Positions 3,175 through 38,773 are shown, counted from the stretch's first letter. The stretch: DNA of 64,000 nt from a virus (IMGVR_UViG_3300045988_027877:39851-103850); one strand, 5' to 3'. Notes: generated by a model not told the origin, from the letters alone. Made by a program: numbers and translations.

Positions 3175-3450
3175 ATGAAATATATAGTAGTACCAGCTGA
3201 AGAGCTGATTGACATAACACAAGAAACATTAGATGAATTACATTTAGTATTTCGTTATAGTGTAGATGGAACTAAAGTAATAATGAAAGTTGCTAACTAT
3301 GAATTACTATTCCCATCAATAATGACTTTACCATTAACAGATGAAGATGAAGTTACAGAAGTAGTATATCCTTATCCTACTTATGAAGGTGACGCATTGG
3401 AAGAACTGTTAAACAGTGATGAATGGACTAATAAAGAAGAACAACTATGA
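3175..3450 (+). CDS. hypothetical small acidic protein
   Basis: Intact 91-aa ORF, co-oriented, stop TGA. Its stop overlaps the next ATG (ATGA). Confidence 0.55.
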   Translation: MKYIVVPAEELIDITQETLDELHLVFRYSVDGTKVIMKVANYELLFPSIMTLPLTDEDEVTEVVYPYPTYEGDALEELLNSDEWTNKEEQL

Positions 3451-3977
3451 GAGAAACTATAAATTTCGTACCTAGTAAGTCAACCCCCAATCACAAAGAA
3501 GTACAGTATTGGATAGACTTACAAACTGATCCATATGGTAGATGTATTAAAACATGGACTGGATCTGAATGGAGTACTATTACTGATAATGATTTGATTG
3601 AGACTATTTAGAAAGAACTAGACAGTAAAGCTAATAAAGCCACTACTCTATCTGGTTATGGTATTTCTGATGCATATACTAAAACTCAAGTAGATGCTAA
3701 AGTAGCATCAGTATATAGAGTGAAAGGTTCTGTAGCTAATTTCGAAGCACTACCTGCTACAGCTGTAGTTGGTGATGTATATAACTTAACAGATACTGGA
3801 GCTAACTATGTATGTATTGTAGCTAATCCTGCTGAATGGGATAAGTTATCTGAAACAGTAGACCTTAGTCATTGTGTAGCTTCAGATGATGTATCTAATG
3901 TAGTTGCTATGACTCAAGCTGAATATGAAGCTCTACAGACTAAAGATTCTAAAACACTTTATTTAATTCACGAATAA
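3447..3977 (+). CDS. tail-fibre-like protein (TAG read through)
   Basis: ATG at 3447 is in the same frame as listed ORF 3720..3977, through one in-frame TAG (3609-3611). Fibre-type motifs LSGYGISDAYTKTQVDAK and TLYLIHE are present. Stop TAA. Confidence 0.7.
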
Positions 3978-3978
3978 T

Positions 3979-5220
3979 ATGAAACTAGGAGATAGAAATA
4001 TTATAGCTGCATACTTAGGTGATGTGAACGTATTCACTAATTACTATGGCGTCAGCTTTCCTCTTGAACCTCAGAATACTATTCTAACTAGAACAGGTTA
4101 TATGCCTTGGCATAAAGAACTACCTATACAGTCTAAGATGAAGTCTTGCACGATTACTTCTGATGGAACAGTTAAATATCTTAGTGTTACAGATAGAACC
4201 AAGTATGAAGATGGTACTGATAGAGACATGACATTAAATACTATGGTAGAAATACCAGAGTTCTGGTATAAATGTATGAGAGATGATACTACTGTATATT
4301 TGAACTTATATCCAGCAGATCCTCATATTCCAGAAGCTGAACATGTGGAGAAGTTCTATATTTCTGCATATGAAGCATCTAATGTAGATAATGTGTTAAA
4401 ATCTATTAACAATGGATCTATTACTCCAGTAGTAAACATTAATAGAACTACTATGCAATCTAGAGCTAGGGCTAATAACTCCAGTACTACGAATTGGAAC
4501 ATGTATACTTACAGAGCTCATAGAATACTTACTGTGCTTTACTTAGTTGAATATGCATGTACCAACAGTTAGAAAGCTTTCAATGCCGAATTAACTGCAG
4601 AAGGATATCATCAAGGAGGATTAGGAGATGGAGTTACTACAGGTAATATTAAAGTAAATGGAGTTGATACATGGAGTTTTATACCTTGTGGAAGTACAGA
4701 CGAACATGGAAACTCTACTGGTATAACTTCCGTTACTGTTAATAGTACTGACGCAGAAGGTGTTGCAACTCAGAAATCTTATAATGTTCCTACTTATAGA
4801 GGTATTGAGAATCCATTTGGTCATGTATGGAAAAATTGTATAGACACACTTGTACATTTTAATGCACAAACTAATAAAAATGACGTTTATATAAATACCG
4901 ACTTAAGTACATTTGGATCTACTGATATATCTGATTATGACTATCAATGTAGTACTACTATTACTGAAGGTTATAAGAAGAAATTGGTATACAATGCAGC
5001 ATTTGACATACTTCCTCCAATAGATGAAGCATTTGGTGGTAGTACTACAACTTATTGGTGTGACTACAATTGGACTAATAATAGTACAACTGATAGGCTA
5101 ACATTAATAGGCGGTCGTGCTGGTTCTGGCGCGGCTGCTGGGTTGCTCTCTGTTTATTCTGCCGATGGGCTTGGCGCTGCTCATGCTGGTGTCGGTACTC
5201 GGTTAATCTATATACCGTAA
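3979..5220 (+). CDS. DGR target (variable) protein, putative receptor-binding protein with C-type-lectin/FGE-like C-terminus
   Basis: Listed ORFs 3979..4572 and 4984..5220 are in one frame, joined through TAG 4570-4572 with no TAA/TGA between them. Motif YRGIENPFGHVW precedes a Gly/Ala-rich C-terminal VR. Stop TAA. Confidence 0.85.
5108..5200 (+). repeat. DGR variable region (VR)
   Basis: 93-nt match to 5257-5349. It differs at 28 positions, each opposite an A in the TR. The 3' boundary is imprecise; both copies end with ..aatc..ccgtaa. Confidence 0.9.
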
Positions 5221-5256
5221 TTTAATTAAAAATATAGATAGGTTGTTCCTCATCAT

Positions 5257-5349
5257 TAAGCAGTAATGCTAGTAATAGCACGAATGCTAGGTTACTCAAT
5301 GTTAATTCTAACAATGAGCTTAGCAATGCTAATGCTAATGTCAGTACAC
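5257..5349 (+). repeat. DGR template region (TR)
   Basis: Non-coding, A-rich (AAT/AGT/AAC-type triplets) copy of the VR, lying between the target stop (5220) and the RT start (5479). Confidence 0.9.
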
Positions 5350-5478
5350 TGAATCCGTAATTAAACAAATAAAGAAATTAAGAGACTGTAGAGGGAGACC
5401 TTACCCCTTGGTAAAAGATAACATACTAATTAACTGTGTTAGTAACTTTTTTCGTGAAAACTCGGTAATGGATTACAG

Positions 5479-6504
5479 ATGAAAAGATATAATAATTTAT
5501 TTGACAAAATAGTAACTTTAGACAATTTATATCTAGCGGATAAAAGAGCTAGAAGACAAAAACAACATAGACCTGAAATAATTAATTTTGATAAGAATAG
5601 AGAAAAATTACTTTTAGATCTATAGAAGAAATTAATAGATGGTGAATATAAGACTTCTGAATATTATATATTCAAGATATATGAACCTAAAGAAAGAGAA
5701 ATATTCAAGCTTCCATACTATCCAGATAGAATAGTACATCATGCTATTATGAATATTATGGAACCTATTTGGATATCATCCTTCATTAAAGGAACTTATA
5801 GTTGTATAAAAAATCGTGGTATACATAAAGCTCTGAAAGATGTTAAGTTCGCACTGAAAGATGAAGTCAATACAAAGTACTGTCTTAAGTTAGATGTCAG
5901 AAAATTTTATCCTTCAATAGATCATGATATATTAAAATAGCTAATAAGAAGAAAAGTAAAAGATAAGAAATTATTAATTATATTAGATGAAATAATAGAT
6001 TCTGCATAGGGAGTACCAATTGGTAATTACTTATCACAATTCTTTGCTAATTTATATTTAACATATCTAGATCACTGGATTAAAGAAGAGAAACATATAA
6101 AATACTATTTCAGGTACGCAGACGATATAGTAATATTAGGAAAAGACAAAGAAGAACTACGTCAGTTGTTCAAAGACATGAAAGAGTATATTGAAACTAA
6201 ACTCAATATAAAGTTTAAAGACAATTGGCAGATATTCAAAGTAGATTCTAGAGGAATAGACTTTGTAGGATATAGAGTATATCACACTCATGTTCTTCTA
6301 AGGAAAACTATTAAGAAGAACTTCTGTAGAAAGATCAGTAAATTAAACAGAAGAGACGATCTTAGTAAGAGTGAATACAAATAGAAGATCTGTAGTTATA
6401 TAGGTTGGATTAAATATTGTAATGGTAAGAATCTTTTAAGTAAAATGACAAAACATAAAGAGCTATTGGAATACATTAATACAAGTAAACGTAAGAGAAC
6501 CTAA
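5479..6504 (+). CDS. DGR-type reverse transcriptase (TAG read through)
   Basis: One frame runs from ATG 5479 to TAA 6502-6504, with in-frame TAGs at 5623, 5938, 6007 and 6382. It joins listed ORFs 5749..5940 and 6166..6384. The DGR-RT hallmark GVPIGNYLSQ is at 6019-6039 and the catalytic YADD at 6115-6126. Confidence 0.9.
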
Positions 6505-6549
6505 TACATATAACTACGTTTTATAAGTAGTTTTCAGATTCATTGTCAG

Positions 6550-6588
6550 ATCCTAGTACATAAAGTTTGCGCTAGGATTAATTTTTTT
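6550..6588 (+). terminator. hairpin plus T-tract after the DGR RT
   Basis: atcctag ... ctaggat forms a 7-bp stem (6550-6578), followed by tta-attttttt. Confidence 0.5.
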
Positions 6589-6601
6589 AAAGATATCTCA
6601 A

Positions 6602-7225
6602 ATGTTTATAGAGTTTTTACCACAGATACTTACAGGAATAGCTTCTATCGCAGCACTCTGGTTTACTTATAATCAGTATACTAAAAATAAAATGACTGAC
6701 TATAAGATTGAGAAATGGAGAAAAGAAGAACATCAGAATAACGTAAAGAAGGCTGGTAGCATTGCTACTATATATGGTGAGTTGTGGGAGTTATTATACT
6801 TCCTCAAAGCGGATAGAGTATACCTAATTCAACCACATCCTTTGTATAGAGAGATGTTCATATCTGCTACGCTTGAAGTAAAGAAGTACGGAGTATCTTC
6901 AGTAAGAGAATCTCTATGTGATATTAAGATTGAATCAGTAGCTAACCTCGTATCAGAACTAGCAAACCAAGATTATTTGTTCATAAAAGATATTGAATCA
7001 TCTAATCTGGATAACAAGATTAAATCTATAATGACAAGTAACGGTTGTCATACTACTGCTATACGAAAGTTATCAGACGAAAAGAATAACTGGATTGGAA
7101 GTATAGTAATAGGCTACATTCATGACTTCGATGAAAATGAAGTAGATGTAGAACTAGTAGAAAAAATGTCTAGATCTAGTGCGCTAGCAATCTAGTATAT
7201 ATTACCAGAATTTAAAACAGAATAA
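6602..7225 (+). CDS. hypothetical protein with N-terminal transmembrane helix
   Basis: Listed ORF 6602..7195 is extended through TAG 7193-7195 to TAA 7223-7225. The N-terminus LPQILTGIASIAALWF is hydrophobic. Confidence 0.6.
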
Positions 7226-7226
7226 C

Positions 7227-7841
7227 ATGTTATCAGAGATTAAGAGTTATCTCAGTAAATTGGCAGTCACTATCATAATTGGTTTGGCTGCCTTTTGTTT
7301 TTATTAGAGTAAGAAGATATAGGTTCTAGATGAACGTCTAGGGCAAGTAACAAATAATTACGAATATTACCAGAGTTTGACAAGTAGATTAAGAGACGAT
7401 AATAGAACACTTCAGTTGAAGGTAGTAGATCTAAATAACTCAAATGATAGTTTACTCTAGACTGCCAAGGAAGTGTAGAAAGAATTAAAGATCAAAGACA
7501 AGAACCTCTAGTAGGTACAAGTAATCAATACAGAAATGAAGGATACTATTACTAAAATAATAACTAAAGAAGTAGACTTTAAAGAAGACTTAAAGCTAAA
7601 TCCTTTAACTACTATCACAGTAGAAAGAAAAGACTCAATCTTAACCGCCATATTAGATTTAAGGAACTCTCAAGTATTGTTCGTAGAAGAGAAAAAAGAA
7701 TATCGTAATAAGTATAAGAATGGCTTCTAGAGGTTCTTACACTTTGATTGGAAGAAAGATCGTATCAGAAAGTATCAGATATATAACAGCAATGACTTAA
7801 TTAAAGTAACAGATACTAGGATAGTTGAAGTTACGGAATAA
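7227..7841 (+). CDS. hypothetical membrane-anchored coiled-coil protein (lysis/spanin-like guess)
   Basis: ATG 7227 to TAA 7839-7841 is a single frame containing 7 in-frame TAGs, including a TAG-TAG pair. It includes listed ORF 7536..7730. The N-terminal segment LAVTIIIGLAAFCFY is a likely TM helix. Confidence 0.55.
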
Positions 7842-7874
7842 TCAAACAAAATATTAAAATTAATCAATAATAAT

Positions 7875-8474
7875 ATGCATAGAATAATCCGTACAAAAGC
7901 TTATGAAGCTAAGCATGGTCCTCACTTTGATGACGAACATGCGCGTAAAGCTGTAAGTAAGATGGAGAATGAGGACGGCTCTAAAGGTCAACACTGGTCA
8001 TTAGAGGAAACTTCTGCCTTAGCTAATCAGTATGGAATTCGTTTTGATGACAAGTTCAACAAATACGATTGGTATGTTGCATTGAATATGGTTTACTCTG
8101 ATTACTATAGAGTGATAGTTAACATGACTGGCTCTAACAACGCTAAGTACTTTGTAGAACTAGCTAAAGCTTGGTTATGTGACAAAGATATCGACGAAGG
8201 TAAGATGTGGTATTACTATATTTATATCATGTGCGACAAGATTAGAGAAGCTGAAGATGAACTCTTCGACAGAAACTACAGCAGATATGAAGATGATGAC
8301 GATGATGAAGCCTACGGTAACTTTCGTAGAGGCGGAAGAATGGGAAGATCTTCATATGGTAGACGTAGAGAATATGACAGAGAATACGACGAGAGGGACT
8401 ATGAGAAGGAGAAAATGTTTCCCTACGAAGATGAACTCAAACGTGGTCGTTCTGTGCGCTACATTAGATATTAA
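7875..8474 (+). CDS. hypothetical protein with Asp-run and Arg/Gly/Tyr-rich C-terminus
   Basis: Intact 199-aa ORF, stop TAA, no TAG. The C-terminus reads EDDDDDEAYGNFRRGGRMGRSSYGRRREYDREYDERDYEKEK. Confidence 0.7.
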   Translation: MHRIIRTKAYEAKHGPHFDDEHARKAVSKMENEDGSKGQHWSLEETSALANQYGIRFDDKFNKYDWYVALNMVYSDYYRVIVNMTGSNNAKYFVELAKAWLCDKDIDEGKMWYYYIYIMCDKIREAEDELFDRNYSRYEDDDDDEAYGNFRRGGRMGRSSYGRRREYDREYDERDYEKEKMFPYEDELKRGRSVRYIRY

Positions 8475-8509: not shown

Positions 8510-9493
8510 ATGTTAGAAGATAAAATTATCCTTCAAGACCGCGGTTTCGACGCTGGTCTGGCTGCTTTAATGCAGAACGCAAATAAAGGTATGGACCCTG
8601 CTGCTTTGATGGCTATGATGAATAACAATGGCGGATTCGGCGGTAACGGCGGATGGTGGTGGATCTGGATTATCCTGATCTTCTTCTGCTGGGGTGGCTG
8701 GGGAGGCAATGGCTTCGGTAACAGAGGTGGCGAAGCTTCTCAACTTGCTTCTCAATTGAATACTGATGCTAATACTAGTCTGTTGATGCAGGCTATCAAT
8801 GGTAACAAAGAAGCTATCAGCAACTTGTCTAATACTCTGAATTGTGACTTTAACTCAGTATAGAGTGCATTGAATACTATTAATGCTAGTGTAAACCAGA
8901 TTGCTTGCGATACTAAGTTGTCCAGTCAGCAAGTAATAAATGCTATTACTTCAGGTAATGCATCTCTTGCTTCTGAATTGGCAAACTGCTGCTGCACCAC
9001 TTAGAGATCTATAGATGGTGTAAATCTTAACCTGACTAAGATGGGTTACGAAAACCAGTTGGCTGTATGCAATCAAACTAACAACTTGGTTAACACAATG
9101 AACAGCAATACTTTGTCTCTGCGTGATAATGGTACTGCAAATACTAATGCTATTATAGCAAAACTTGATGCTATGCAAAATCAGGCACTACTTGACAAGA
9201 TTGACTCTCTGCGTGAGAAAAACTCTACACTGGTATCTCAGTTAAGTCAAGAACATCAGACTGCTACATTTGGTACAATGATAAGTCAGGCTACTACGCC
9301 TATCGTTACTAAGTTAAATGCATTGCAATCTGACGTTGATGGTATCAAGTGCAAACTTCCTAACACTGTAAGTGTACCATATCCTCAGCTGTCTGTTTAT
9401 AATCCAGAAGTTTTCAAAGCTGCTGCGTATGGAGCTTTTGCTGGTGATACTTATGCAAACTACGGAGTAGGTTATAACAACTGTGGTTGCTAA
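8510..9493 (+). CDS. hypothetical membrane protein with Gly/Trp-rich TM segment and Asn/Gln-rich coiled region
   Basis: Listed ORFs 8510..8863 and 9041..9493 share a frame and are joined through TAGs at 8861 and 9002. One segment reads GGFGGNGGWWWIWIILIFFCWGGWGGNGFGNRGG. Stop TAA. Confidence 0.7.
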
Positions 9494-9499
9494 TAAGAA

Positions 9500-9993: not shown

Positions 9994-10560
9994 ATGATAA
10001 CATTTTCGCAATTGAGTATAGGCGATCCTATATATGTATTAGAAATCATAGGTACATTTAAGAAGAGTACTAATTACTTTGCTGGTAATATAGTAAGTGT
10101 ATCTAAAGTGTATGACGAACCACTACCACCATAGTAGTTTCCAATGCCTAACTAGAATAGAAAGAAGTTAGTAGACATAGTTATAAGTTGTGGTGGTGAA
10201 CAAAAGAAGCTAACAGTAGAAGAAGGTAAATCATTGATTAATGATACTCAATTAGGTCTTACTGTAGCTACAGATAAACAGCATATAGTCAACATGGTTA
10301 AGTCTAGTTACAATGAATACAAAGCAAAGAAAGAAGCTGTTGCTAGGTATGATGAAGAAATGACAAAATGTGAAGCTATACTTAAGTAGTTAGACTATAC
10401 AGAGAAAGAACCTGAGAAAGAAGATCCTAGAATATAGGAACTACAAGATTAGGTTAAAGAACTTAAAGATTTAATAAAGCAAGCAAGTAATATGGTTCCA
10501 CCTTAGATGAAACAGATGTTACCATAGAATATACAGAATGCAATGAATGAGGCTAGTTAA
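9994..10560 (+). CDS. hypothetical protein visible only with TAG read-through
   Basis: ATG 9994 to TAA 10558-10560 is one frame of 188 codons with 8 in-frame TAGs and no TAA/TGA. No ORF of 60 aa or more was listed here. Confidence 0.55.
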
Positions 10561-10575
10561 TACTAGCCTTTTTTA
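10551..10575 (+). terminator. rho-independent terminator
   Basis: ggctagt-taat-actagcc forms a 7-bp stem, followed by ttttttatttt. Confidence 0.65.
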
Positions 10576-10692
10576 TTTTAAGACGTTTAGACAAACGCTA
10601 TTATATTGGTCGATCAGTTGTACTATCCAACACACAAAAGAGCTTAGAGAAGCTTAAAATACGTTATAAGTATATTTAATAAATAATGCATT

Positions 10693-11349
10693 ATGAAATT
10701 AAATACCTTAAATACTATTATTGATGATATTCTACTTGAATTGCGCAATAGTTCTGTAGCTGAATCAGAACATATAAGTAGGATATAGATCGAACAATGG
10801 ATAGCTAATTATCGAGCTGTACTTATAAAGCAAGATATAGACAAAGGTAGAGATATTAATCCAATGTACATCTAGACTATGCCATGTATACACTTAGACA
10901 AAGTAGATACTGTAGCTGGTAAGATAGAGTATAAGAGTAATATAGAACTACCTAAACTAATAGACTTCCATTTCAGGACCGGTTTAGTATATGTCAAGGA
11001 CATGTACGGTAATCTTATTCAGCTAGGTCATGAAACTAAAATGAAATATCAAAGATACAGAAAGTATACCTGTGGTGATTACATCGCTTATATTAAGAAC
11101 AACAGGTTATATATCGAAGGTAGTGACAATCAACTAGAATGGGTAGAGATAGGAATCATAGCAGAGAATCCGGCAGACTTAAATGAATGCTTTGATCCTG
11201 ATAGTGAATATCCTGTACCTGCACATATGATACCAGTTATTAAAGATATGATCTTTAGTAAAGAGTTAAATATCATGCATCAGATGCCATCAGACGAAAC
11301 TAATAACTCTAGAGATGATATGTAGAACATTAATGTTAGATAGCAATGA
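10693..11349 (+). CDS. hypothetical virion-block protein
   Basis: ATG 10693 is in frame with listed ORF 10879..11325. Four in-frame TAGs. Ends TGA 11347-11349, overlapping the next ATG at 11346. Confidence 0.6.
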
Positions 11350-11789
11350 AGAAATCTTATACAATAAGCGACTTCTATGAGTTCTACTTATCTTATATCG
11401 AAAGGGAAACTGTATATGATGTTGATTACAAAACATACAGACAAATTGTTGAAGATTACTTTAAGTATATCGTAGAAGAGATAATGGAAAATAGTAGAGA
11501 ATTCAAACTACCATGTAGACTTGGAAATCTAAGTATAGTAAAACGATAGCCTAAGAACTTTGATAACAAGAGCTTAAGAATAGATTATCACGAAAGTAAG
11601 ATATACGGGAAGCCGATTTATTTTACTAACGAACATTCTAATTTTTTCAAATTCAGATTTTTGTGGTCTAAGAAAGATTGTCTGTTAACGAACAAGACAA
11701 AATACTAGTTTATAGCGACTCGTGCCAATAAGAGAAGGCTAGCACAAATAATAAAAAATAGAGAGCATGACTACGTGGAGATTAAGTGA
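11346..11789 (+). CDS. hypothetical protein
   Basis: Listed ORF 11346..11549 is extended through 2 TAGs to TGA 11787-11789. Confidence 0.6.
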
Positions 11790-12582
11790 TATTCAAAATA
11801 TATCAAAACAAGCTGGAGTATATCAAATTAAGAATGTTTTAAATGGGCACTCTTATATTGGTAGTACTAATAATTTTTACGATAGACTAATATAGCATCG
11901 GTCCCATTTGAGAAAGTAGAAACATCACAGCATTGCGTTGCAGAGAGCTTATGATAAATACGGAGAATCTAATTTTGAAGTAAACATATTAGAGATCTGC
12001 TCACCCATAAGAGACACTTTATTGTATTTAGAATAGAAATATTTAGATTTAAACCCTGAATACAACATAAGTAAAATAGCGAGTCATCCTTCAAACACTG
12101 GGCATAAGATGTCAGAGCGAGGTAAGAGAATATTGCATGATTTATATTATGGAAAGAAAAGAGATCCAAATATAATAGAAAAAGCAATAAAAAATAGAAT
12201 AGGAAAAGGATGTAAAAACGTATATTGTTTTAATAAGCAAGGCGAGTTTATAGGATGTTTTTTAAATTCTAAACAGGCCGTTAAACTATTAAATCTCGGT
12301 ATATCTCCTAGCATAATAAATAAATGCTGTACAGGTCTATGTAAAAGTGCAGGAGGATTTGTATGGTCTTACACTTATAAGACAATCGGATCATATAAAA
12401 AAGATAATGCAAAAAGAACTAAGATAATTAGAATTTATAAAAACGGAATGGAAAAAGTATACAGTTCTGTTGCTGAAGCAGCAAAAGATACTGGTAATAT
12501 AGATAACAGATCTGCTATATCAGACTGTCTACGCGGAAAAAGAAAAACAGCTTACGGTTCTAAATGGAGGTACTACAAATGA
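11767..12582 (+). CDS. GIY-YIG homing endonuclease (free-standing, TAG read through)
   Basis: ATG 11767 is in frame with listed ORF 12109..12582, through 3 TAGs. The N-terminus reads GVYQIKNVLNGHSYIGSTNNFYDRL...LQRAYDKYGESNFEV, which is GIY-YIG. The C-terminus has repeated GF-W-Y DNA-binding-like modules. Stop TGA. Confidence 0.8.
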
Positions 12583-13487
12583 TTGATAAACTAACAACGT
12601 CTAAAGAAATAATTGCTAAGATCATAGCCGATTATGATCTTAAAGAAGATGAAATTAAAATAACAGATATTCGAGAATGGATTGGCGAAGGTATGGAAAA
12701 AATAGGTGCGGTACAATAGTTAGAACATAAAGTAGCTAATCTGAAGATATGTGACTATCAAGCTAAACTACCGTGTGATTTGTATAGATTAAATCAAGTT
12801 GCATTCTCATTTGAGAATAGTTGTGGTTGGTTACCAATGAGAAAGGTGACTAACTCTTTTGGTATATATAAGAAGTGTGGAGAATGTGATCCTAAGATGT
12901 TGATACAAGATAATGTTTTACTTCCACTAGTAAAGAATATCTTTAACTTAGATAATGATAAGGATGCATTAGAGATACTTAATAGTGATTAGAACATTAA
13001 ACAAACTCTTAGTGCTCTAGTAAATCAGTATACCGTACCTAGTAACAATGGTAGACTTATAGTAGGTAATCCTGCTACATTCAATACTAGTTTACAGTAC
13101 TCTACTAAACCGGGTTACATTACAGTTAATGTACCGTGCGGTTGGGTTAAAGTATCTTATCACGCTATACCTACTGATGAAGATAATATGCCTATGATAC
13201 CAGACCTAACTTCTTATAAAGAAGCATTAATGTATTATATAGGTACAAAACTATTATACTCTAAATGGATAAAAGGATAGGTATCTAATGAGATATACTA
13301 TACAATAAAAAGATCTTGGAATTTTTATAGGAAACAGGCATATGCTGAAGCGATGATGCCAAGCACTGACGAAATTAGAGGTATTCAGAATTCCTGGGAC
13401 AGGTTATACCCTGAAAGAGATGAGCATAGTAGTTTTTTTGAATATCTTGGTGATCAACAACATATTTATAATTAGAATAGACCATGA
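12579..13487 (+). CDS. hypothetical virion-block protein
   Basis: ATG 12579 overlaps the previous TGA (ATGA). It is in frame with listed ORF 12780..12992. Four in-frame TAGs. TGA 13485-13487 overlaps the next ATG. Confidence 0.6.
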
Positions 13488-16400: not shown

Positions 16401-17626
16401 AAACTACTATCAATATGGCTCTAATGTATGGTCAATCAGCATCTAGAGTTGCAAGTGGCGGATTAGATTACGTTGATCCATATCTAGGTATAACCGCTGC
16501 TGGTGGATCGTATGGAGGTCATAGTCAAGAGAAACCATATTATGCATATAATGATGCATACAGTATCCAACCTGATGCATAGATGTATGCAGTAGATTCT
16601 ACTTACTCTATAAGTAATCTTAAGTCTGGTAATCGAATCAGATATTCTGGTACTAAGACAGCTAATGAAATAACAGATAGTTGGACTAGTTTCAAAGCTG
16701 CTGATTACTTAGATGTAGATTCATCTCACGGAGATATAACTAATCTAAAGAACTTCAATGATTAGTTATTATTCTGGTAGAAGGATGCTGTAGGTATAGC
16801 TGCTGTTAGAGATAGATCTTTGATTACAGATAACGATCAAGCATCACTAGTATTAGGTACTGGTGGAGTACTAGATAGATATGATTATGTAACTACTTCT
16901 AATGGTTCTGATACACCTAATGATAAGAGTATCATTGGTACTCCTAGTGGTTTGTATTGGTATGATGATAGTAAGAATGAAGTATGTTCATATACTAATC
17001 AAGTACAGAAGTTATCTAAAGCGAAGAGCGTACAATCATGGTTTAACGATAATACTAAGAAAGCTAAAGTAAGTATATACGATCCTAAGTTCAATGAAGT
17101 ACAGATGGGATTTGAGGATAAGGATCTAGTGTACAATGAATAGTTACAGCAGTTTTCATCATTCTATACACTTAATCCAGATAACTGCTTGGCATTCCCA
17201 GATAGACTCTTGTATATCAAAGACTAGATGATACAAGAAAATGCAGATTTTCCGTTAAATAAGATGCGTTCTAAGTTATAGATTATAGTTAATAAGGATC
17301 CATTACTTACTAAAACTTATGATAATGTATTCTTTAGTGGAGAGTTCGATAATGTTCAAGAGATGATGTAGGATATTAAGTTTACTACTAAGACTCAAGA
17401 AGGAACTATCTTCAAAGATGATACTGAAGTAAGTAATCCGATAGAACAAAGAGAAGATACATATAGATTTGCTGTGGGTAGAGAGAAAGAAAGTAAAGAT
17501 GATATGTCATTACCGGGTAGAATGAAAGGTAAATACATGATATGTGATTACTTAATTAACTGTGACAATCAGCGTAACTTCAAACTCCCTAATATTAACA
17601 CAACATATAGATATTCATTAGTATGA
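13484..17626 (+). CDS. large virion/tail structural protein (1380 aa)
   Basis: Listed ORFs 14201.., 15119.., 15671.., 16583.. and 16820.. are all in the frame of ATG 13484. The gaps contain only TAG (18 by my count). Stop TGA 17624-17626. Confidence 0.75.
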
Positions 17627-19251: not shown

Positions 19252-19252
19252 T

Positions 19253-21052: not shown

Positions 21053-21053
21053 T

Positions 21054-27000: not shown

Positions 27001-30000
27001 CTGGGAAAGGTATTCAGTATCATGAAGCTTGGCATTATATAAACCTACTTGTACATTCTCCTAGAGAAAGACAGATCGTATACGATGATTATGTAAAACA
27101 TCATCCTGAATATAAGAATGCTTCTATAAATGAAGTAGAGGAAGCTATGGCAGAAGACTTCCGTAGCTGGGCTATTGTTCAGAATGCTAAGTGGTATAAT
27201 CTTGGTTACTAGACTATTAAGCTATTTAGAGCCATAAAAGACTTTGTTAAGTCTATGTTCAATATATCTGATAGTCTCTATACTACTATATATAAAGGTA
27301 TAAACAAGGGAAGATATTCTCAATATGAACTGAACTCTGTATCTATGGAGGAATTCCATAAGGCATTTACAGACAATGGTACATTCTTCTCTATACCGGG
27401 AGTACCTCAAGACAGATTGAAGAACATGCCTTCTATCATTAATCCAGATGTATTTTATAATGTATTAGACTCACTTACTAGTACATTGTTATCTGTGTTT
27501 AATGTTAGACAAGCATCTGATATATCTAAGTTAACAGAGAATCTAGATTATATTCCTTCTATTATAGAGGGAAATATGATGGCTGGTCTTACTCCTGAAG
27601 AGAATGAACAACTTATTGAAGAAGTACTTGATAACTGGGATATCTTCAGAAAAGAAATGGCAGAGCAACTATCTACTCTGAATATCAAAGCTGAGGAAGT
27701 AGAGGTAGATAAAAATGGTGATACAGAAGGACAGAATAATAATGAGAGATATGATAGAGTTGCTTTTGAATTCTCAAAGAAGCTCAATATGTCTTTCAAC
27801 GCTAAGCTATTCTTTTACTCTATTCCTAAAATGGAATATGATAAGAATAAAGAACTAGTGCCTGTAGTAGATCCTATCTTTGGACTCAATATGACTGAAT
27901 CCTTTGATGTGTCTTGGAATAAAATAATGGAAAACCTATGGGATATCGAAAGATGGGAAGATCTAGAATCTAGATGTTTAAGACTTGGTAATGCCGATCC
28001 TTTCTTTAAATCTCTATATAACTACATTAGTGGAGATAATAAACCAGATGAAAACACTTGTACTCAAATACTTACTACTATTAAAAGTGCTAAAAACGAG
28101 ATGACTTCTATAGAATTTAAGGAAGCGTTCGAAAAAGCAAACAGTAGAATACAAGATGAGGATTTAGTATTGGATGTAAAAACATCAATGAGAGCTAAAG
28201 CTGGTAAATGGCGAATCCTGGATTCCTCTTTACTTAGATTATAGAATAAATATCCTAGACAATGGGGTAAACTATTCTATGTGTCCGGTATGATAGACAA
28301 GAGTAATCCTAATAAGTTTGAAATAGACTAGGACAAACTTGAGGATTTGAATGTCGACTTTATGCTAATAAAAGAGAAGATAGACGAAATAGCTGCTCCA
28401 TTTACTTCTAAGAGACCCAAAGCCATTACATTCACAGAAGATGATATCCGCAAGGCTAGTGTTACAGCAAAAGAGGAATTAGTGAACTGGTTGAACGGAA
28501 TAGGTATAGACGTAGATATTAAGTCTATAGACTACTTATTATACGGTATGAAGTCAATGAATCCTAAACTACCTACTATTGAAGGATTCGATAAAATGTA
28601 CACTTTACTTAATGACTCTAGTAAAGGAAATATTCGTAACCAGATATTAGGCAACTTAGATGCATTATCTAAGGGAGAAACAAAACTATTAAAGCTAAAT
28701 AATCCATTCCCGGTAACAGAAGACAGTTTTATATAGAAACTGGCTATTGCTCATGGTAAGTCTCACCCAAATCCATCAGAATTTAGTGTAACTGGTCCTA
28801 ATAATACTACAGTATACCCAATAACCTAGAATAACTATATGTCTGATAGAATTAGATGGTTTAATACAGATCCTTCAGAAGTATCAAAAACTAGGAAGGC
28901 TGTGTATAATCGTCACTCTATACTGTTGCAGGCACTAGAAGACGGATCTAAATTAAGTTTAAGTACCTTTATTGCAGTTCGTAACGAAGATAATAGAACT
29001 AGTAGAGATTACTTCTAGATATCTCCAGTAGAGGACTATATATCTAAAATGGTGCTTGCTCATAACGATAGAATACTATTACCTACTATGGCAGATAAGA
29101 AGACATGGTATTCTATTAGTGGAGTTAAACTGTTCCACGATATGTTGTCTAAATCTAGATTAACTGAAAGACAGACAGATACGGGTATACAGGTTCAATA
29201 TGTTGATGATCAGATGTATCATTATTCTGATGATACACTACAGACATTTGCAGATTATTTCCTTGATGAATTTAATGCTATAGAACAGTATTACGCAGAT
29301 AAATCACAAGTAGAATAGAATCCTAATCTTGCTATTGATAATTACCACGGTAAAATAAAGAATGGTAAGATGGATAATATGGGTAATGGAGGGTATTTCA
29401 GATACTTCTCTTCCATCAGAATGAGAGGAGAAGATGGAAACTATAAATACATGCCTTTGAACCAGATGATTTATGCTTGGTCAAAATTTGATTATGATAA
29501 TAATCAAAATCAAATGCCAACCAGACTTAAACAACTTAAAAATACTTTGTTTAGTAATAGAGAAGTATTATTTGATATGATAAATGCAACTCTACAAGAT
29601 AAGGTATAGGAAGAACTTGATTTCTTAGTGGATAAAGGTATAATCAAAAAGTATGCCAATGGTGAATATGAGAACTTGTTAATACCATCTAACATGCTAG
29701 ACGATTATCATGAACGTTCTCGTTCACTTCCTAATGGAGATTCTTCTAAGAGAAGTAAGCCTGCTGCACTTTATTCATTAATTGCAAACCATGTAGCTAA
29801 CTAGATGGTTTCTATTATAGAAGTAGAGAAAGCATTTGTTGGGGATCCAGCTTACTATAAATGGAAACGCGATAAGAAACAACCATGGATAATAGTAGAA
29901 AGATCTGTAGACAAAATTAAACGTCTTGGTTCTGTATTGTCTACTGGAGATAACCTTAGAACTTATTGGGGAGACGGAGATCCTAGAAATAACTCTAAGT

Positions 30001-33000
30001 TTACAGTATTACATATGAGTGATAATGAGGTAGGATCTATCAAGTTTGACGAGTACAAAAAGATGTTTACCGCTGCTGAAGTGATGAAACATATTCAAAG
30101 AACTAACCCAAATATAGACCAGAAACGACTGGTTAATATGGTTAGTAAAGAGAATATTAACAACACTATGAAAACTCTTAATGCTAAAGTAAAGAAAGCT
30201 ATAGAGGATTCAGTAGCTAGACAGATTGCTGCATATGGTATTGATGAAAACGGTAGGGGTAGGATAAACCAAGCCGATGCTGCTGTGTACATTAGACCTG
30301 CATTGTATAAGAGAATTGTCCAAGCAGTAGGAGAATGGTCACCAGAAGTAGAAAGAGCGTTTGATCTATTAGAGAGTCCTGATGAATCATGGTTGTCAGA
30401 TCCTAAACTATACGCACAAGCTATAGAGACTCTTATCAAACCATTAAAGATGGTATACTTTGGTAATCATGAACTCACTAAGTTAGGATTGAATGTACCG
30501 GTATTTGACAAGATGGCTATCTTCCCGATGTTCAGAGTGATGGCAAAAGCAGATAACTATCATCTGTACAATCGTATGAACAATGAAGAACTAGGTGCTA
30601 TTGATATGCTTACTTTTGAATCTGCGGTTAAAGTAGGTGGTAGAAAGAAATTCAAACCATATAAAGATGCATAGAACAGTAGATTTAACTTAGAAGATCT
30701 GAATAAACCGTCCACTTCTATAGTAAATGGTGAGACTAACTTCGAAGGTTTAGATTCTGACAATTCTAAATTGCCTACGTATATTCAAGATTTGCGTAAT
30801 CTTAGATTACAGATGAATACAGATCCACACGAACATACTGATAGATCGTTAGGTACTCAGTTTGCTAAAGTAGCACTAAGTAACTTGGTCAAGAGTAGAC
30901 CGTATGGATTAAATAAAGGAGTAGAATACACTGGTAGATAGATTATAGATAATGTATTTAACTCTATTAATAGGTTATCAGATCTAGGAGCACAGAAGAT
31001 ATACGATGAATTTACTGATGATGGTACGTTATCTACTAGAAAGTTATCTAACTTCTTAATACGTCAAGCTAAAGATAGTGGACTATCCAGAGATGTGGTG
31101 TCTTCTTTCGAAATTGATGAATCCACAGGTCAAATGCGTGTTCCTCTGTCAGCATAGAGTAATAGAAGATTTATCGAAAGTAGGATTATATCACAAGTAG
31201 GAAAGAGAGCTATTGATATCAATACTCCGGGTGGTTCTGCTATCCAACACGCGTTCTTTGGATTTAAGAATACAACTATAACAGATCAAGAATTTGTAGG
31301 TAGAGCATTCAATGATGGTAAAGATCTGAGTCCTTTGAATGAAGACGGTAGTATGGACTGTATGCTTAGCACCAATTTCTTCAGACATGTAGTACCTGCT
31401 TCAGTAAGAAAACAAGGTTATACAGCTATCAGAGAATGGTTAATAGAGAAGAATATAATTGGTCAGAATGCTAAGCCGTATGCATTAGGTTATCGTATTC
31501 CAACGCAGGGTTTATCATCTACAGCATCTCTTAAAGTAACAGATGTACTTCCAGAGTCTATGGGTGATGTTATTGTAGTTCCTAATGACTTTACTGCAAT
31601 GACTGGTTCTGACTTTGATATTGACAAGTTGTATATAGTTACTGGTTACTATGATAAAGATGGTAATTATTTAGAATGTAATTGGGATGATATAGATAGT
31701 AACTCTGAACAACAATTAGTGAATGGATTAATTGATATGTATCGTATTGCTATATCTGACGATACTAACATAGATCAAACTAAAGCTCCTCTTGATAACC
31801 TTACTGAAAAGGTAAAATCAAACATTCTTCCACTAGTAATGGGTACTGCCAAAAATGAAGCTAAACCAATGTATGAATTACTTCCTTCTTATCAGTTGTT
31901 TAAAAAGTTTGAATATACCGGTGGTAAAGATGGTATTGCTCCATTTGCTCTAGCTTCTACTAATCATGCGCTTACTCAAGCACTGAATCTTAGAATGGAT
32001 TTGGGTGAAGTAGCCGATTTATACGACTTAGGTAATATAAATGATATAACTTCTCAGGATGGTGAAAGAATACTTGACTGGCTATCTGCCATGATTAACG
32101 CTCACGTGGACGTTGCTAAAGATCCTTACATCATTAACTTGAATGTTAACTCTGTTACTTATAGTATGACTGAGTTCTTGCTTAGAACAGGTAAGGGAGA
32201 AGCTACATTCTACTTCTTATCACAGCCTATTTTGAAAGATTTTGCTAACATGATTATCAAACTGAATGGTCAATATGGTGTAGATCCTCAAGACGTTTCT
32301 TATAGCCAGTTAATAGATGATACGTTATCTGGTTTAAAGAAACAGTATATGAGAGAGTTTGCCAACTTTGTTGACTCACAATCTGATGAAAATATTAAAA
32401 AGAAATTAAATCAAGAATGGGCAGGTCTATTAGATTTTGAAAGAAGCCCAGATACTCCTAGACGAGCAGTAGATGTAGAGTTACTTAAAAAAGCACTTAC
32501 TTCTAATATAGAGGGAAATAGAGATTTAAACTTCTATCTACAACAAGTATTAGTTGCTACAGCCTATCAAGACATGTTACCATATGCAGAAAGACTAACA
32601 AAATTAGTTAGATTATCGCAAATTGATACTAAGAAATATGGTAATACTTTAGCTCAGTAGGCTAACTATAGTAAATCAGTATTTGATTTTATCAGGAATG
32701 ATGGTGAATTATTCTATCAAACTGATGATAAAGGTGTGAAAATAGAAGATGAAAATCAAAACGCTCTGCTTAACTATTACTCTAATAGCTTCTTGATGAA
32801 GAAATTAAAAAATGCGGTAGATATTCCTAGATTTATATTACATCAAGATTTTATTCAAGCTACTGATATGTATGGTGGTTTGTTTAATAATATGATAAAC
32901 TCTATGATAGGAGAACGAAGTGGAATAAACAAACAATTAGCCATGAAGTTGGATTCCATTGTAGATAGTGTAATTAGAGCTAGAATTGCTAACAGTACTC

Positions 33001-34448
33001 CAGCTATGCATTTAGAGTAGGGAGAACTAAAGGAAATGGTAATGGGTAATAGAACTGTTCCTAAGAGATTACATCAACTTAAGTATGCCATATATAGAAA
33101 TATAAATGGTAGATACGATAACTTGCTTAATGGAGATGGATCAATAAGTAATGCTTTCTTAAATTACCTAATTCCAACTCTAGCTACAGACAGTACAGAA
33201 GGTGGTATTGATGCAATGTCTTTACTTAATAGTTCTATGGCTAACAGTTCTAATTTTGAGAATAGATTAATTGCATACTTTAGTGACTTGATGTCCAGTG
33301 AAGATGCAGCTGTAAGACAATTTGCAAATAGATTAGCATTGTATGCTTACTATACATCTTATGACAATAAGGCTCCAAATACGTTCTCACATTTGATATC
33401 TAGTCAGTTTAGAGTTGATTCAGGTTATGCAGATAATATAAGACAAGCTATAGGTGATATGAATACTGGACAATGGTTAGGAAATGTGTTTAATGAAACT
33501 ATAGACGAACCTACGTTAAGCTCATATCCTTCTATCGCATTAAATATTGCTAGAAACAATGCTTAGGATTCTGAAGTAGTTAAGAATGTAGTTAAACCTA
33601 AATCCAATAGATATAATAGTAAGTCGTTTATATATGCTCCATCCCCGTGGACCGATGGTACAGGTACATACCTTATGTCATTCAGTACTAAACCTAGAAA
33701 AGACGAAAGAGATTTCTTATCTATTGATTATCCTGTTTACGGAAAGAGAAATACTGTATTATATGTCAAAATAGGTAGACTTGAAGTATACGACAAGGAG
33801 AAAGGTAAAAAACTAGGATAGGCTGGACAGACAATATATGCTGCTGTACCTAGATTAGGAATACAGTCCGGATCAAATACAGTAAATGAGTATTATAAAG
33901 ACGCTTATTCTCTATCTGACTTTGATGAAAATAATATAAGTGTGTTATCCTACAAGTATTTAAATGACTTCTTTAATGATCAATCTAAGTATAAGATGTG
34001 GGTTAAAGGAGTAGACAGCAAAAATATAGATATATCACTTATACCAAGTCAATATTTCAACGAACAGTTCAATGCTCATGGATTAGACAGATTAACAGAA
34101 GATGTAGATCTATCAGAGAATTCTGCTGATAACATTATCAGTCAAGAAGTAAATGACGAGAAGCCTACTCAACAGAGTGAGAAACCTAAATCTAAAGCAA
34201 TGGAAACTAAAGAGTTAGATAGAGATATAGCAGCAGAAGCAGGTTTGTTAGATAAAGGTAATTTAATGACTAAAGTAAACCAACAATTACTAATGACAGA
34301 AGCAATGATGGAAGCAGTTCCTTATGAAGATCCTAATGCTGGAGTAGAATCATCTGGTGAAGATATATCAGACATGTTTACTTCTGAAGATGATCTTAAT
34401 GAGGATAATTTCTCAGACGATGCTTATAATAACTGTAAAGGTAAATAA
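21054..34448 (+). CDS. giant multidomain protein (4464 codons) including crAss-type virion RNA polymerase module
   Basis: Eighteen listed ORFs from 21669 to 33942 all sit in the frame of ATG 21054. I translated every gap and found only TAG (about 32), no TAA/TGA. GSDFDIDK is at 31611-31625 and HEAWH at 27021-27035. Stop TAA 34446-34448. Confidence 0.8.
27021..27035 (+). other. HExxH (HEAWH) zincin-like metallopeptidase motif inside giant ORF
   Basis: cat gaa gct tgg cat, in the context GKGIQYHEAWHYINLLVH. Confidence 0.4.
31611..31625 (+). other. DFDID putative catalytic Asp triad of crAss-type RNA polymerase
   Basis: gac ttt gat att gac, in the context FTAMTGSDFDIDKLYIV. Confidence 0.6.
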
Positions 34449-34450
34449 TT

Positions 34451-37400
34451 ATGGCAAAAGGAATATGCCCAAACTTAAGTGATCCGCAGATTAAAGCGGA
34501 GTTTGATGAGATGGTAGCTGCTCTTGGAGAAAAACAAGCATATGCTATCTGGGACATGAATAATGGTTATAGTTTAGATAAGGCTCCGAATGGGGAGCCT
34601 TCTGTACTATTCGCTAGACTATTAGAATATAATAATGATAATAGACAAGCTGCAATACAGGATAAAGCTAAAATATACACCAATTCATTTATAGAGAGAT
34701 ATGGTAATTGGATAGAAGGAGAGAAGTCTGACAAATTCTCTTATGTAGAAGGAGAACCTATTGTTAGTAAGGAATCCTTAAACATATTTGATAAACAAGA
34801 CTCTCCACTTCAGCAACAATCTATGTCTCAAATAGATGAAGCTATGAAGAAATTTAGAGCTGAACGATATGATTTTGATAAGACATTAGATACGTTAAGA
34901 CAACTAATAACTAATGCTGTACAAGCACGTATTAAGTCTATTTAGAATCGTAAGATAGCTAACAAGACTGCTTTATTAGTTCCTTTAGAGCAATAGCTAT
35001 CTGCCCTCAAGAATCCGAATATCGACTCATTACAGACCATAGTATACTGTTTATCGGATATAAAAAGAACTATGACTCGTCCAGTTAATGCCATACTTAC
35101 TGCTCAAAAGAATCTTAGAGAAGGTAGAGATAGTGGATTTAGTAATCTAGCACTAATACAACTTCAATAGGATTATTTTGGTATGTATAATAACGTGCTA
35201 GAGGAAATTGCTAGAAATGTATTTGATTCTGACATTTATAAAGACATACTTGGAGCATAGAGTTTCGATCAGATGAAGACTATGATATCCAATATGCGTA
35301 CTCAATTTGCAGCAGCTAGGCAAGGACTTATCGAACTTACTACAGACTTAGCATAGAAGACTATGTTAAAGTATGGTATCAAGGATGAACAAAGCAGAAC
35401 AGAACTGGAATAGTATGTAGGAGAAGATCTTATTACTACTGAAAATGACGTTAGTTCTCTAATGAGATGGATAGGGTCTGGAGATAAAATGAACGATAAG
35501 GCTGCTAGAGTTATGTTCGATATGATAGCAAACACTAATAATAAGACTCGTTTCGCTACTCATAAGTTCGGTAACAAGTTGTTACGTCTATAGAAACAAA
35601 TATCTCTAGGAGATCAAATGAGACTATTTGAATATGATTCAGATGGTAAAAAAACTGGTTACTTTATTAGAGACAGAAAGTATGGAGAGTTTCTTAATAA
35701 TCTTGAGAAAGAACGCAAACGCTTAAAAACTAAGTATAATGTTCCGGAAGGATAGAACATGCCTTTAGAGAAGGAAGCTAGAACTGCTTTCAATAAGGAG
35801 ATGAACGATTGGTTAAGTAAGCATTGCGAACGTAGATATACTAAGAAATATTATGATGCATTTAACTCACTTAGTCAAGAAGCCAGAGATGCACGAGACG
35901 CAATACAATTTAAGATATACAAACTACTAGATGATGTAAGAGATAGTAGAGGAAAAGTACATCTTGAGAATCTAGATGCTAAACAATGGGCACAATATGA
36001 GAACTATAATATACAGAAGAAGCAGTTGATGTCCATGTATTATGAAGATGGTACTCCTAAGACTGATTTAGATAAGTAGATAGCAGAGGAACTTACTGAA
36101 TTGAATAAAATGCTTCATGAAGGAATGCATTATGTTACCAATGAAGAGAAGTTCAACGAAGCTAAACGCGAAGCAAAGGAAAATCTTACTCCAGAACAGT
36201 ATGAAGCATGGAAAAAGAGATATACCAGAGTATAGATTAGTGATGAATTCTATAAACAACTATCTTAGATAGAGAAGAAAGAATACGGGGATAGGTATAT
36301 TGAGTTAAAGAAGATAAGGGAAGAGCTTACTAAACCGTATAGAAATGAGTATACTGGAGGTATTGATGTACAGTATATGTCATCTACTCTGCTGCATACT
36401 CTAAATAGTCTGGATAGAGAAATGCGTAAAGAGAGGAAGAACGCTCGTAAATCCAAATCTAAGAAAGAAGAAGAGTCTATAGAAGGACTTAAATTCGAAG
36501 ATATTGCAGAATCAGTTCCTACTGAACAATATAAAAGAGATAAGTAGGCAGCTATAAACAGAGGTATAGAGTTCTATGAACTATGGGAGAATCAGCACCA
36601 TATCAAGTACTATATAGGTGAAAAAGAAGTAATAGTTCCAAAATGGTACTATACTAAGATAGTTCCAAAGGACGAAAGACTTATAAATTATGAAGCACCT
36701 ACTAGAGAGTTTAGTGAAATAGATCCTAATTCAGAGTATTTCAATAGTAAATTCGATGTAAATATTGACGAGTACTATCAACCTAAAGAATCTCTTTACA
36801 AGAATAAAGAGTATGATAATTTATTTAAAGTAAAGAAGGATAAGAACGGTAATGAAGTAGCTACTAGAAATATACCTCTGTGGAACTTATATAAAGAGTT
36901 ACTCAATGGTATGGAAACATCTAATGATAAACTTACTTTCTTGACCAGAAATAATCCATATAAGTTACCACAAATGAGTGGTAGTATGTATCAATATGCT
37001 AAAGGAGATGGTATTATAAAAGGATTCTTACAATATACCAGACAAGGTATAGTAAAAGACGTAGATGATGTAGGTTACGTTGATGCTCCTACAAGTAGAC
37101 CAGATGGATCTGCTTAGAGAATGATTCCTACTTATTATATAAACAAGTTAGACGATCCTAATAAGATTACAAATGACTTAGTTGGTTCTGTTATAGCTTA
37201 CTTCAAGATGGCTGAAAACTTCAAGAATAAGACAGAGATACAACCAGACCTAGAAGTAATAAAGATGTAGATGGCTAATCGTGCATATACTGGAAAACCT
37301 ATAGGATTAGATGCTCTCAAAAGAAAGATATTTAAGCAGAGTGATAAGAAAGTAGGTGCTGATACTAATACTTATAAGTTTATAAGTAGGTTTATGGATA

Positions 37401-38773
37401 TGCAATTATATGGAGAAGAATCTAAATCTATACTTAAGAAATTTGCAGAGGATAGTAAGATAGGTAAATTCTTTGGATTAGCAGGTAAAGAAGTAAACTT
37501 CTCTAAAGTAATCCACAGTATTAAGAACTATGGTCAATTACTTGGATTAGGTCTCAACTTAGCTGTTGGAGCTACAGGTATGGCTACAGCTTTTTTGGCT
37601 CAGCTAGGTATGGCCGCTAATGGTAGATATTTCGATTTTTCTTCTTTTTCCAAGGCATATTTCAATATGGTAAGTAACTTGTTTGGTATAGTATAGTATG
37701 CAAAAGATACTACCACTAACAACAAGTATGTGGCATTGATGCAGAGATTCGAAATAGGCACAGAATTCTAGAATGCTTTTAGAAACTCTAATAGAATTGG
37801 TATAATAAACACGATAAGTAGGAACTGGGCGTTCGGAATTTTTTCATTTTCTGATTTTGTAATCAAAGGTACTATACTAAATTCGATTATGAATAACTAT
37901 AGATACTACAATGGAAGATTCTATAATAGTCAATAGTTCAATTAGTTATTCTCTAACAAAGAAGATGCAAAAAATATCTGGAGAACTCTATAGAGTACTT
38001 ATGATATAATTGAAATAGAAAATGGAAATATTGTAATTAGAGATAAAGCATAGGCTAAAGCTTTTGCTGAAGTATAGAATGAAATTAGTAATAGTGCTAG
38101 AGCTCTTTCTGCTACAGCTGATGGACAGTTAACAGAAGAATAGAAAGCACAATTTGCTTCTAATGCTTTTGGTTCACTTATAATGATGTTCCGTAACTAT
38201 ATACCAAATATTATTAGTGAGAGAATCACTATGAAAAAATAGTATGATTATAATTTAGGTATGGAACGTGAAGCTTTATTAAGAACTATAGGTAGAGTAG
38301 TACCTATGTTAATAAAAGATTGGAATAGTCGTAAACAACTAGATGCATCTGATATAGGGAATATTAGACAGTTTGGTTACGAAATGACTATGATTGCTCT
38401 ATTATCATTTGTAGTTAAACCTCTATTAGTTGAAGCTGCTGATGATGATCGAGATAATTGGGTTAAGAATTTCTTAGCTCTTCTAGTAACTAGAACTGGA
38501 TTTGAGTACGGTAATCAATATAATCCTCTAGACTTACTTAATACTATTACTTCAGTAAGTTCTATATTTGATATAATGAATCCGTTCACTAATCTTTTAT
38601 CACTTAGCGAAATGTGGGAAGTTGCTATTAATAATAAGAAAATTAAGTATGGAGCCTATAAAGGTGATACTAAATTAGAAAGATGGTTATGGAAAATGAC
38701 TCCATTTAAGAATGTTAAAGAGATTCAAGATCCGGCAATCAAACGAAAGTATTACGAACAATTATACAAATAA
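34451..38773 (+). CDS. very large hypothetical protein (1440 aa), last gene of + block
   Basis: Listed ORFs 34451.., 35759.., 36911.., 37271.. and 38261.. share one frame. The gaps contain only TAG (23 by my count). A hydrophobic segment GLGLNLAVGATGMATAFLAQLGMAANG is present. Stop TAA. Confidence 0.75.

Follow-up and report, generated by a model that had tools for sequence, protein, structure and literature searches.

The stretch of DNA analyzed here, IMGVR_UViG_3300045988_027877:39851-103850, is 64,000 nucleotides (nt) of a viral genome and is called the window at its full length. At issue is the codon TAG, which interrupts most genes of a + strand late block (3447-38773) and is absent from the interior of the genes of a - strand early block (38826-63708). 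The nearest relative is uncultured phage cr52_1 (NC_055888.1), which is 93% identical over 13484-33484 by megablast, has nucleotide identities of 87-98% across most of the remaining window, and has the same gene order. cr52_1 is Buchavirus copri (Loutivirinae, Suoliviridae, Crassvirales). The window is also colinear with cr113_1, cr60_1, cr53_1, cr6_1, cr1_1, cr10_1, and cr4_1. Matches to PHROGs and the cr52_1 annotation reveal a crAss-like gene content: a tail protein, a reverse transcriptase, a virion structural protein, a GIY-YIG nuclease, and a tail tubular protein, together with a tail stabilisation / virion structural protein and a giant protein with an RNA polymerase domain of the phi14:2 gp66 type. 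Signature genes, synteny, and identity to classified members place the window within the Crassvirales/Suoliviridae (delta group); on these sequence comparisons it is ~64 kb of a crAss-like gut phage of the genus Buchavirus or a close relative. The sign of the GC skew flips at ~38.8 kb, the point at which the + and - strand blocks converge. The phage has two coding regimes, a standard-code early block on the - strand and a late block on the + strand in which TAG serves as a glutamine codon.

TAG codons in the late and early blocks

When only TAA and TGA are counted as stops, positions 3447-38773 of the + strand resolve into a tight, nearly gap-free array of 18 genes. Within them TAG occurs in frame 121 times, and TAA and TGA are absent from their interior; at least one TAG is present in 15 of the 18, and every gene ends in TAA or TGA. 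Under the standard code, the same block breaks into dozens of open reading frames (ORFs). The largest ORFs recovered are 21054-34448 (4464 aa, 32 TAG), 34451-38773 (1440 aa, 23 TAG), and 13484-17626 (1380 aa, 18 TAG). Over the 4464 codons of the giant ORF, TAA and TGA together occur 0 times in frame versus 200 and 544 times in the other two frames, so chance is excluded. TAG accounts for 121 of the 539 Gln-type codons (~22%) of the late block versus 0 of 186 in the early block. The total of 121 was obtained after the start of the lysis gene was moved from 7122 to the ATG at 7227, following the alignment with cr52_1 gp21. The longer ORF, with its start at 7122, runs into the gene before it, and its first 35 codons, which hold five TAGs, are probably not coding.

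Homology is continuous across these codons: PHROG, PDB, and orthologue matches all extend over the TAGs. In the non-recoded phages cr1_1 and cr10_1 (Boorivirinae), single uninterrupted genes in the standard code lie opposite the TAG-interrupted genes of the window. Orthologues of the giant ORF are 4551 aa (cr1_1) and 4460 aa (cr10_1) and contain no internal stop of any kind, and those of the stabilisation protein, 1374 and 1338 aa, likewise have no internal stop. All 18 TAG sites of 13484-17626 fall inside alignments to the cr1_1 and cr10_1 genes.

An earlier note on this DNA had proposed that TAG is a sense codon throughout 3447-38773, and the re-call bears this out, with 18 contiguous genes in place of dozens of fragments. 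The note's hand count of about 120 in-frame TAGs is close to the program's 121. The ORF pieces it had assigned to the frames of the ATGs at 21054, 13484, and 34451 are recovered as single ORFs, and the tandem TAG-TAG pairs it mentioned are found in frame at 7509, 10132, and 21156. Its 21 gene ends in TAA or TGA correspond to the 18 genes plus three TAG-free genes upstream (129-1184, 1212-3128, and 3175-3450). Among the observations that it said would count against its proposal were separate short genes in homologues and an overlooked in-frame TAA or TGA; the uninterrupted cr1_1 and cr10_1 genes are the opposite of the first, and the 18 genes contain no instance of the second. Its statement that some TAGs sit inside conserved motifs of the reverse transcriptase and the GIY-YIG nuclease holds in part, as these TAGs fall inside conserved domains, though at none of the invariant residues. 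The start it gave for the block needs revision: upstream of 3447, the recoded late block takes in the TAG-free genes, reaches position 1, and extends past the edge of the window.

The genes of the array all lie on the + strand. A tail-associated gene of 176 aa (3447-3977; one TAG, ending in TAA) is followed by a tail protein, the target of a diversity-generating retroelement (3979-5220; one TAG). Its match to phrog_5302 covers residues 19-413 and thereby spans the TAG at codon 198, where cr60, cr53, and cr6 have Q. The reverse transcriptase of the retroelement (5479-6504; phrog_1423, E 3e-119, residues 1-329) contains four TAGs, 44% of its Gln-type codons. A phrog_38864 protein with one TAG (6602-7225) occupies the position of the holin gene of relatives and precedes a LysB/spanin-like lysis protein (7227-7841), in which 7 of 204 codons are TAG, including the tandem at 7509, and TAG makes up 54% of the Gln-type codons. 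Downstream lie a phrog_16490 gene (8510-9493; two TAGs) and a late gene with no function assigned (9994-10560), which has the highest TAG density of the block (8 TAGs in 188 codons, including the tandem at 10132; 50% of its Gln-type codons). Next come a virion structural protein (phrog_9863; 10693-11349; four TAGs), a phrog_12177 gene (11346-11789; two TAGs), a GIY-YIG homing endonuclease (11767-12582; three TAGs, with a PHROG match across them), and the tail tubular protein (12564-13487; four TAGs). The tail stabilisation / virion structural protein of 1380 aa (13484-17626) is followed by late genes of 542 aa (17623-19251; six TAGs) and 599 aa (19253-21052; five TAGs), the giant virion protein (21054-34448), and a large late protein of 1440 aa (34451-38773), the final gene of the + strand block.

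Residues ~3378-3740 of the giant protein match gp66, the virion RNA polymerase of Cellulophaga phage phi14:2 (PDB 6VR4, E 9e-31). The matching segment corresponds to nt 31158-32657, and the catalytic motif TGSDFDIDK lies near nt 31602-31628. Searches of the TAG-free pieces of this ORF against Pfam and PHROG returned almost nothing, and only the PDB sequence search was informative. The cr52_1 orthologue, which has the identical length of 4464 aa, is labelled 'nuclear pore complex protein-like' in RefSeq.

The three + strand genes upstream of the array, two tail-fibre-like genes (129-1184 and 1212-3128) and a further late-block gene (3175-3450), end in TGA. The tail-fibre-like pair has 0 TAGs in 989 codons; ~10 would be expected at the late-block rate. 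Homologues of the genes of 129-3450 in cr52_1, cr113_1, and cr60_1 are also TAG-free over the aligned parts. The tail-fibre-like genes (129-3128) are the most strongly diverged from cr52_1 (~50-58% aa identity). These comparisons suggest that 129-3450 is an exchangeable host-range module kept compatible with the standard code.

The early/replication block on the - strand (38826-63708) consists of 27 ORFs with 5946 codons, among which 0 internal TAGs are observed versus ~54 expected at the late-block rate. Its products include a DnaB-like helicase, a DnaG-like primase, a DNA polymerase, AAA ATPases, a PD-(D/E)XK nuclease, and an ECF sigma factor. Five of the 27 genes, the primase and helicase among them, end in TAG (41967, 45056, 49396, 58161, and 63256). 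Four of these five ends are also TAG in cr52_1, while that at 41967 is not resolved by the alignment. Reading through the five would add just 1-22 codons.

The amino acid at TAG and its decoder

A comparison with cr52_1 shows how TAG is exchanged between close relatives. Of the 120 window TAGs that can be aligned, 94 are also TAG in cr52_1. At 63 positions only one of the two phages has TAG (cr52_1 has another codon at 26 of the window TAGs, and the window has another codon at 37 of the cr52_1 TAGs); the other codon is CAG or CAA in 41 cases and TAA in none. Exchange with TAA is what one would expect of a stop codon. Ten of the 41 exchanges are TAG/CAA pairs, a two-step change. In alignments to cr1_1 and cr10_1, 28% of TAG sites have Q opposite them; the conservation of Q itself is 30% and its background frequency 3.4%. 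A likelihood comparison based on these two phages places Q 57 nats above the next amino acid, and with all seven relatives, cr52_1 left out, the lead of Q is 215 nats. In its usage, TAG behaves like a minor synonymous Gln codon, and four independent lines (homology across the TAGs, exchange with cr52_1, alignment to distant relatives, and codon usage) agree that it stands for glutamine in the late block. The residue that aligns with TAG in homologues, which the earlier note had suggested checking, is glutamine.

One TAG behaves differently. At 13473-13475 (codon 304 of the tail tubular gene), four codons ahead of the TGA stop, TAG stands opposite a TGG (Trp) that is conserved in cr52_1, cr113_1, cr60_1, and cr4_1; either Trp has changed to Gln here or the TAG is in effect an early stop.

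Decoding of TAG in this manner would call for a transfer RNA (tRNA) with the anticodon CUA. With default settings, ARAGORN detects no tRNA in the 64-kb window, and relaxed thresholds, intron mode, and mitochondrial mode yield noise only. A low-scoring 'cta' call within the giant ORF (30732-30804) is not backed by Rfam and was rejected. A tRNA-like element at 48621-48679 (- strand), found by the Rfam scan, is ruled out as the decoder, as it has no anticodon arm. The earlier note was thus right that the window holds no canonical tRNA(CUA), but its suggestion that an odd tRNA-like element might decode TAG fails, since the sole element of this kind lacks the anticodon stem-loop. No release-factor or aminoacyl-tRNA-synthetase domain (a 'code-change module') is found among the standard-code ORFs of the window.

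The note had also considered that the decoder may lie elsewhere in the genome, and relatives support this. In cr52_1, a 76-nt tRNA(CUA) is present at 93287-93362, separated by 15 nt from the terminase gene downstream of it. This position corresponds to ~7.4 kb past the end of the window. The RefSeq record of cr52_1 already includes read-through coding sequences and labels this tRNA (CUA) as tRNA-Gln. The use of TAG in cr52_1 starts exactly at the terminase gene beside the tRNA: the 12 + strand genes ahead of it share one TAG in total, and recoding extends from the terminase (11 TAG) and portal (10 TAG) genes through the following late genes to 61079. All four of the named Buchavirus-type relatives examined carry a suppressor tRNA: cr52_1, cr56_1 (92120-92199), cr109_1, and cr113_1 (94123-94213).

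The decoder was also surveyed at 80 IMG/VR loci whose terminases are 74-98% identical to that of cr52_1, with ARAGORN applied to the same strand up to 3 kb upstream. All 80 terminase genes contain 5-15 in-frame TAGs, and in 60 of the 80 loci a tRNA(CUA) lies upstream. Among these 60 is an IMG/VR contig (L011/L019) that contains the terminal 44-mer of the window and is 89-95% identical over the last ~4.8 kb of the window; there the tRNA(CUA) lies ~660 nt upstream of the terminase gene. The 44-mer matched two IMG/VR contigs exactly, both at 89-95% identity, and an exact-protein look-up gave short Logan contigs of 81-95% identity. Of the 20 negative loci, four, all within the first 60 loci, have <1 kb of upstream sequence. 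We infer that the phage of the window also carries a tRNA(CUA).

The suppressors themselves are diverse. A BLAST search of the phage collection with the cr52_1 tRNA matched only cr52_1, which led to the finding of different suppressor tRNAs in its relatives. At least five unrelated sequence types of tRNA(CUA) occur at the terminase-proximal locus among close relatives (survey loci L019-L098), including tRNA-Gln-like forms of 75-76 nt, an 80-nt form with an enlarged variable region, and a class II-shaped form of 91 nt whose variable arm is long. The commonest type starts with a 19-mer that, in a search of 185,579 cellular species genomes, is found only at tRNA-Gln(UUG/CUG) genes and at a few tRNA(CUA) genes, the latter probably phage DNA binned into those genomes; this restriction supports an origin of the commonest suppressor type from tRNA-Gln.

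Mobile and noncoding elements of the window

A complete diversity-generating retroelement is present at 3979-6504 (+), targeting the C-terminus of the tail protein (3979-5220). Its template repeat (~5251-5345) and variable repeat (~5102-5196, at the 3' end of the target gene) differ by 29 mismatches, 27 of which fall on template adenines, and an Rfam RT-17 motif lies at 5397-5485. The repeats were found by local alignment after being missed by a generic repeat finder. Because its gene contains four TAGs, the reverse transcriptase could be made only once the suppressor is present.

Several differences from relatives involve mobile elements. The GIY-YIG gene (11767-12582) is found in some relatives and not in others. 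An HNH endonuclease gene of cr52_1 (31765-32343) is absent from the window, where 10560-10693 is the equivalent gap. The window carries an extra ~660 bp at 59317-59979, which includes a + strand ORF of 191 aa (59388-59963) with no family match; in the equivalent place cr52_1 has ~270 bp, and the adjoining region is called a permuted transfer-messenger RNA by ARAGORN and RefSeq. Relative to cr52_1, the HNH gap and this insertion are mobile-element differences as well.

The tRNA-like element at 48621-48679 (-) is the only one that the Rfam scan (E <= 1) detects in the window. It has acceptor, D, and T arms, with four nucleotides in place of the anticodon arm, and lies 20 nt before the start codon of the DNA polymerase gene (ATG at 48600). 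cr60_1 has a tRNA-like element at the equivalent position, and the changes in its acceptor and T stems are compensatory. Among 78 IMG/VR polymerase relatives (loci L129, L132-L211), 76 have a T arm and acceptor stem ending 17-28 nt before the polymerase ATG. At least 12 distinct acceptor stems, each fully paired, occur among these elements, whose lengths are 58-137 nt; the middle varies greatly, from a form that looks like a canonical tRNA-Met to forms whose anticodon region is deleted, minimal, or expanded. Judged by this pattern, the element resembles a conserved RNA-processing signal of the RNase P/Z or mascRNA kind and not a decoder.

Three ribozyme-associated RNA motifs on the - strand lie in intergenic gaps between small early genes, all above the Rfam gathering threshold: a Hatchet self-cleaving ribozyme (63021-63147; 96 bits), RAGATH-9 (61238-61392; 120 bits), and RAGATH-20 (60216-60318; 121 bits). 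The early block also contains an ORF-free stretch of ~2.1 kb (52075-54253) with no ORF of >=60 aa, the longest on the - strand being 54 aa. Its GC content is above that of its flanks, and it is 72-94% identical across the Loutivirinae, with substitutions that show no codon periodicity or third-position bias and many indels that are not multiples of three. Most relatives checked leave it unannotated, the exception being an opposite-strand ORF of 145 aa in cr113_1. A repeat search, an Rfam scan, and folding-energy z-scores of this stretch gave no repeat, match, or unusual value.

Late-gene recoding, its alternatives, and its meaning

The best explanation of these observations, to which we assign a probability of about 0.93, is late-gene recoding of TAG to glutamine with a phage suppressor tRNA, with early genes remaining in the standard code. 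The early/replication genes would be translated at once by host ribosomes. In the late block, which comprises tail and virion proteins, the virion RNA polymerase, lysis proteins, and lodged mobile-element genes, TAG would be read as Gln. This reading would require an amber-suppressor tRNA (anticodon CUA) encoded by the phage outside the window, at the head of the late block as in relatives. The suppressor would presumably be charged by the host glutaminyl-tRNA synthetase and would compete with host release factor 1. Consequently, full-length late proteins, above all the TAG-rich spanin-like lysis protein, may be blocked until the suppressor accumulates.

The phenomenon is already known in delta-group crAss-like phages (Suoliviridae) as code-15 late-gene recoding; that such recoding is known in crAss-like phages had been recognized in the earlier note. 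Such recoding (code 15, TAG to Gln) has been published for crAss-like phages (Yutin et al. 2021, PMC7886860), the late/lysis bias of TAG has been mapped by Borges et al. (preprint 10.1101/2021.08.26.457843), and metaproteomics has demonstrated Gln at TAG in two crAss-like phages (Peters et al. 2022, PMC9523058). The window has the TAG-interrupted late genes, the correspondence of TAG to Gln, and the standard-code-compatible early genes of code-15 recoding in the Crassvirales. Like the published phages, it belongs to the delta group, uses TAG as sense only in the structural/lysis block next to a replication block in the standard code, has relatives with tRNA(CUA), and carries a spanin-like gene that prefers TAG over CAA/CAG. 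Nothing essential differs, except that the decoder is not within the window and that the window is known from sequence alone. Lak megaphages and other TAG- or TGA-recoded gut phages (Garnet, Amethyst, Agate, Jade) likewise combine late-gene reassignment, standard-code hosts, and a suppressor tRNA; however, these are unrelated lineages, some of which have release-factor or tRNA-synthetase modules of a kind not found among the window ORFs. The bacterial supE suppressor is similar in being derived from tRNA-Gln, having the anticodon CUA, and inserting Gln at UAG against release factor 1. However, supE is a cellular point mutant that gives low-level suppression, while here the tRNA would be a regular, phage-encoded decoder for ~22% of late Gln-type codons.

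Several observations weigh against this explanation. The decoder is missing from the window itself, its presence being deduced from relatives that are 89-96% identical. In 20 survey loci ARAGORN detects no suppressor up to 3 kb from the terminase gene, although that gene is TAG-recoded, and the suppressors of relatives are of several unrelated types, one of them class II-shaped. Three late-block genes are entirely free of TAG, and the five early-gene TAGs may act as stops or may be read through.

The diversity of the suppressors suggests one variant. The decoder locus upstream of the terminase gene could be a swappable cassette, such that the strain of the window uses a non-canonical tRNA, one not of the Gln type, or none. 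We consider this improbable for the strain itself; if true, the charging enzyme, the efficiency, and perhaps the ambiguity of decoding would differ between near-identical phages.

Somewhat less probable still is read-through that needs no phage decoder and depends instead on a host suppressor tRNA, a recoded host, or a mechanism that does not involve tRNA. The tRNA-free window and the negative survey loci fit this idea, as do the detection of suppressors in only ~40% of TAG-recoded phages (Borges et al.) and the recoded Crassvirales genome without tRNA(CUA) described in a 2026 preprint. However, the four named relatives all have a suppressor tRNA, and so does the contig that shares the terminal 44-mer of the window. 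A recoded host is further argued against by the five TAG-ended early genes and the TAG-free interior of the early block, which indicate that the host reads TAG as a stop.

A sense codon for a different amino acid, whether Ser, Leu, or Tyr inserted by a class II-type suppressor or pyrrolysine, has a slighter chance again. It is raised by the 91-nt tRNA(CUA) with a long variable arm in close relatives (cr113_1 and loci L020, L055, and L066), and labels give little guidance: ARAGORN names any CUA anticodon 'Pyl', and the RefSeq label 'tRNA-Gln' may just follow the anticodon under code 15. Yet Gln leads all other amino acids in the window and TAG exchanges with CAG/CAA. In cr113_1, which has the class II-shaped tRNA, Q still leads by 45 nats, with S, L, and Y at just 2-6% of TAG sites. 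As to pyrrolysine, searches of the window ORFs revealed no pyl genes.

The idea that the TAGs are genuine stops, in pseudogenes or many short genes, or assembly or sequencing artefacts can be set aside as having almost no likelihood: although the standard code does fragment the region, the frames are interrupted by TAG alone and never by TAA or TGA, homology runs on across the TAGs, most are kept in the independently assembled cr52_1 with CAG/CAA at most of the others, and the same terminase-gene TAG pattern recurs in 80 of 80 related contigs.

Late-gene recoding with a phage suppressor tRNA makes the window one more instance of a published strategy and adds no new principle. For annotation of such genomes, code 15 is needed: standard-code gene callers would split the 35-kb block into dozens of false short genes and would miss the 4464-aa protein with its virion RNA polymerase domain. 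The published TAG preference of the spanin-like lysis gene is reproduced here in an independent genome. The comparison of relatives indicates, in addition, that the suppressor tRNA beside the terminase gene is replaced unusually often.

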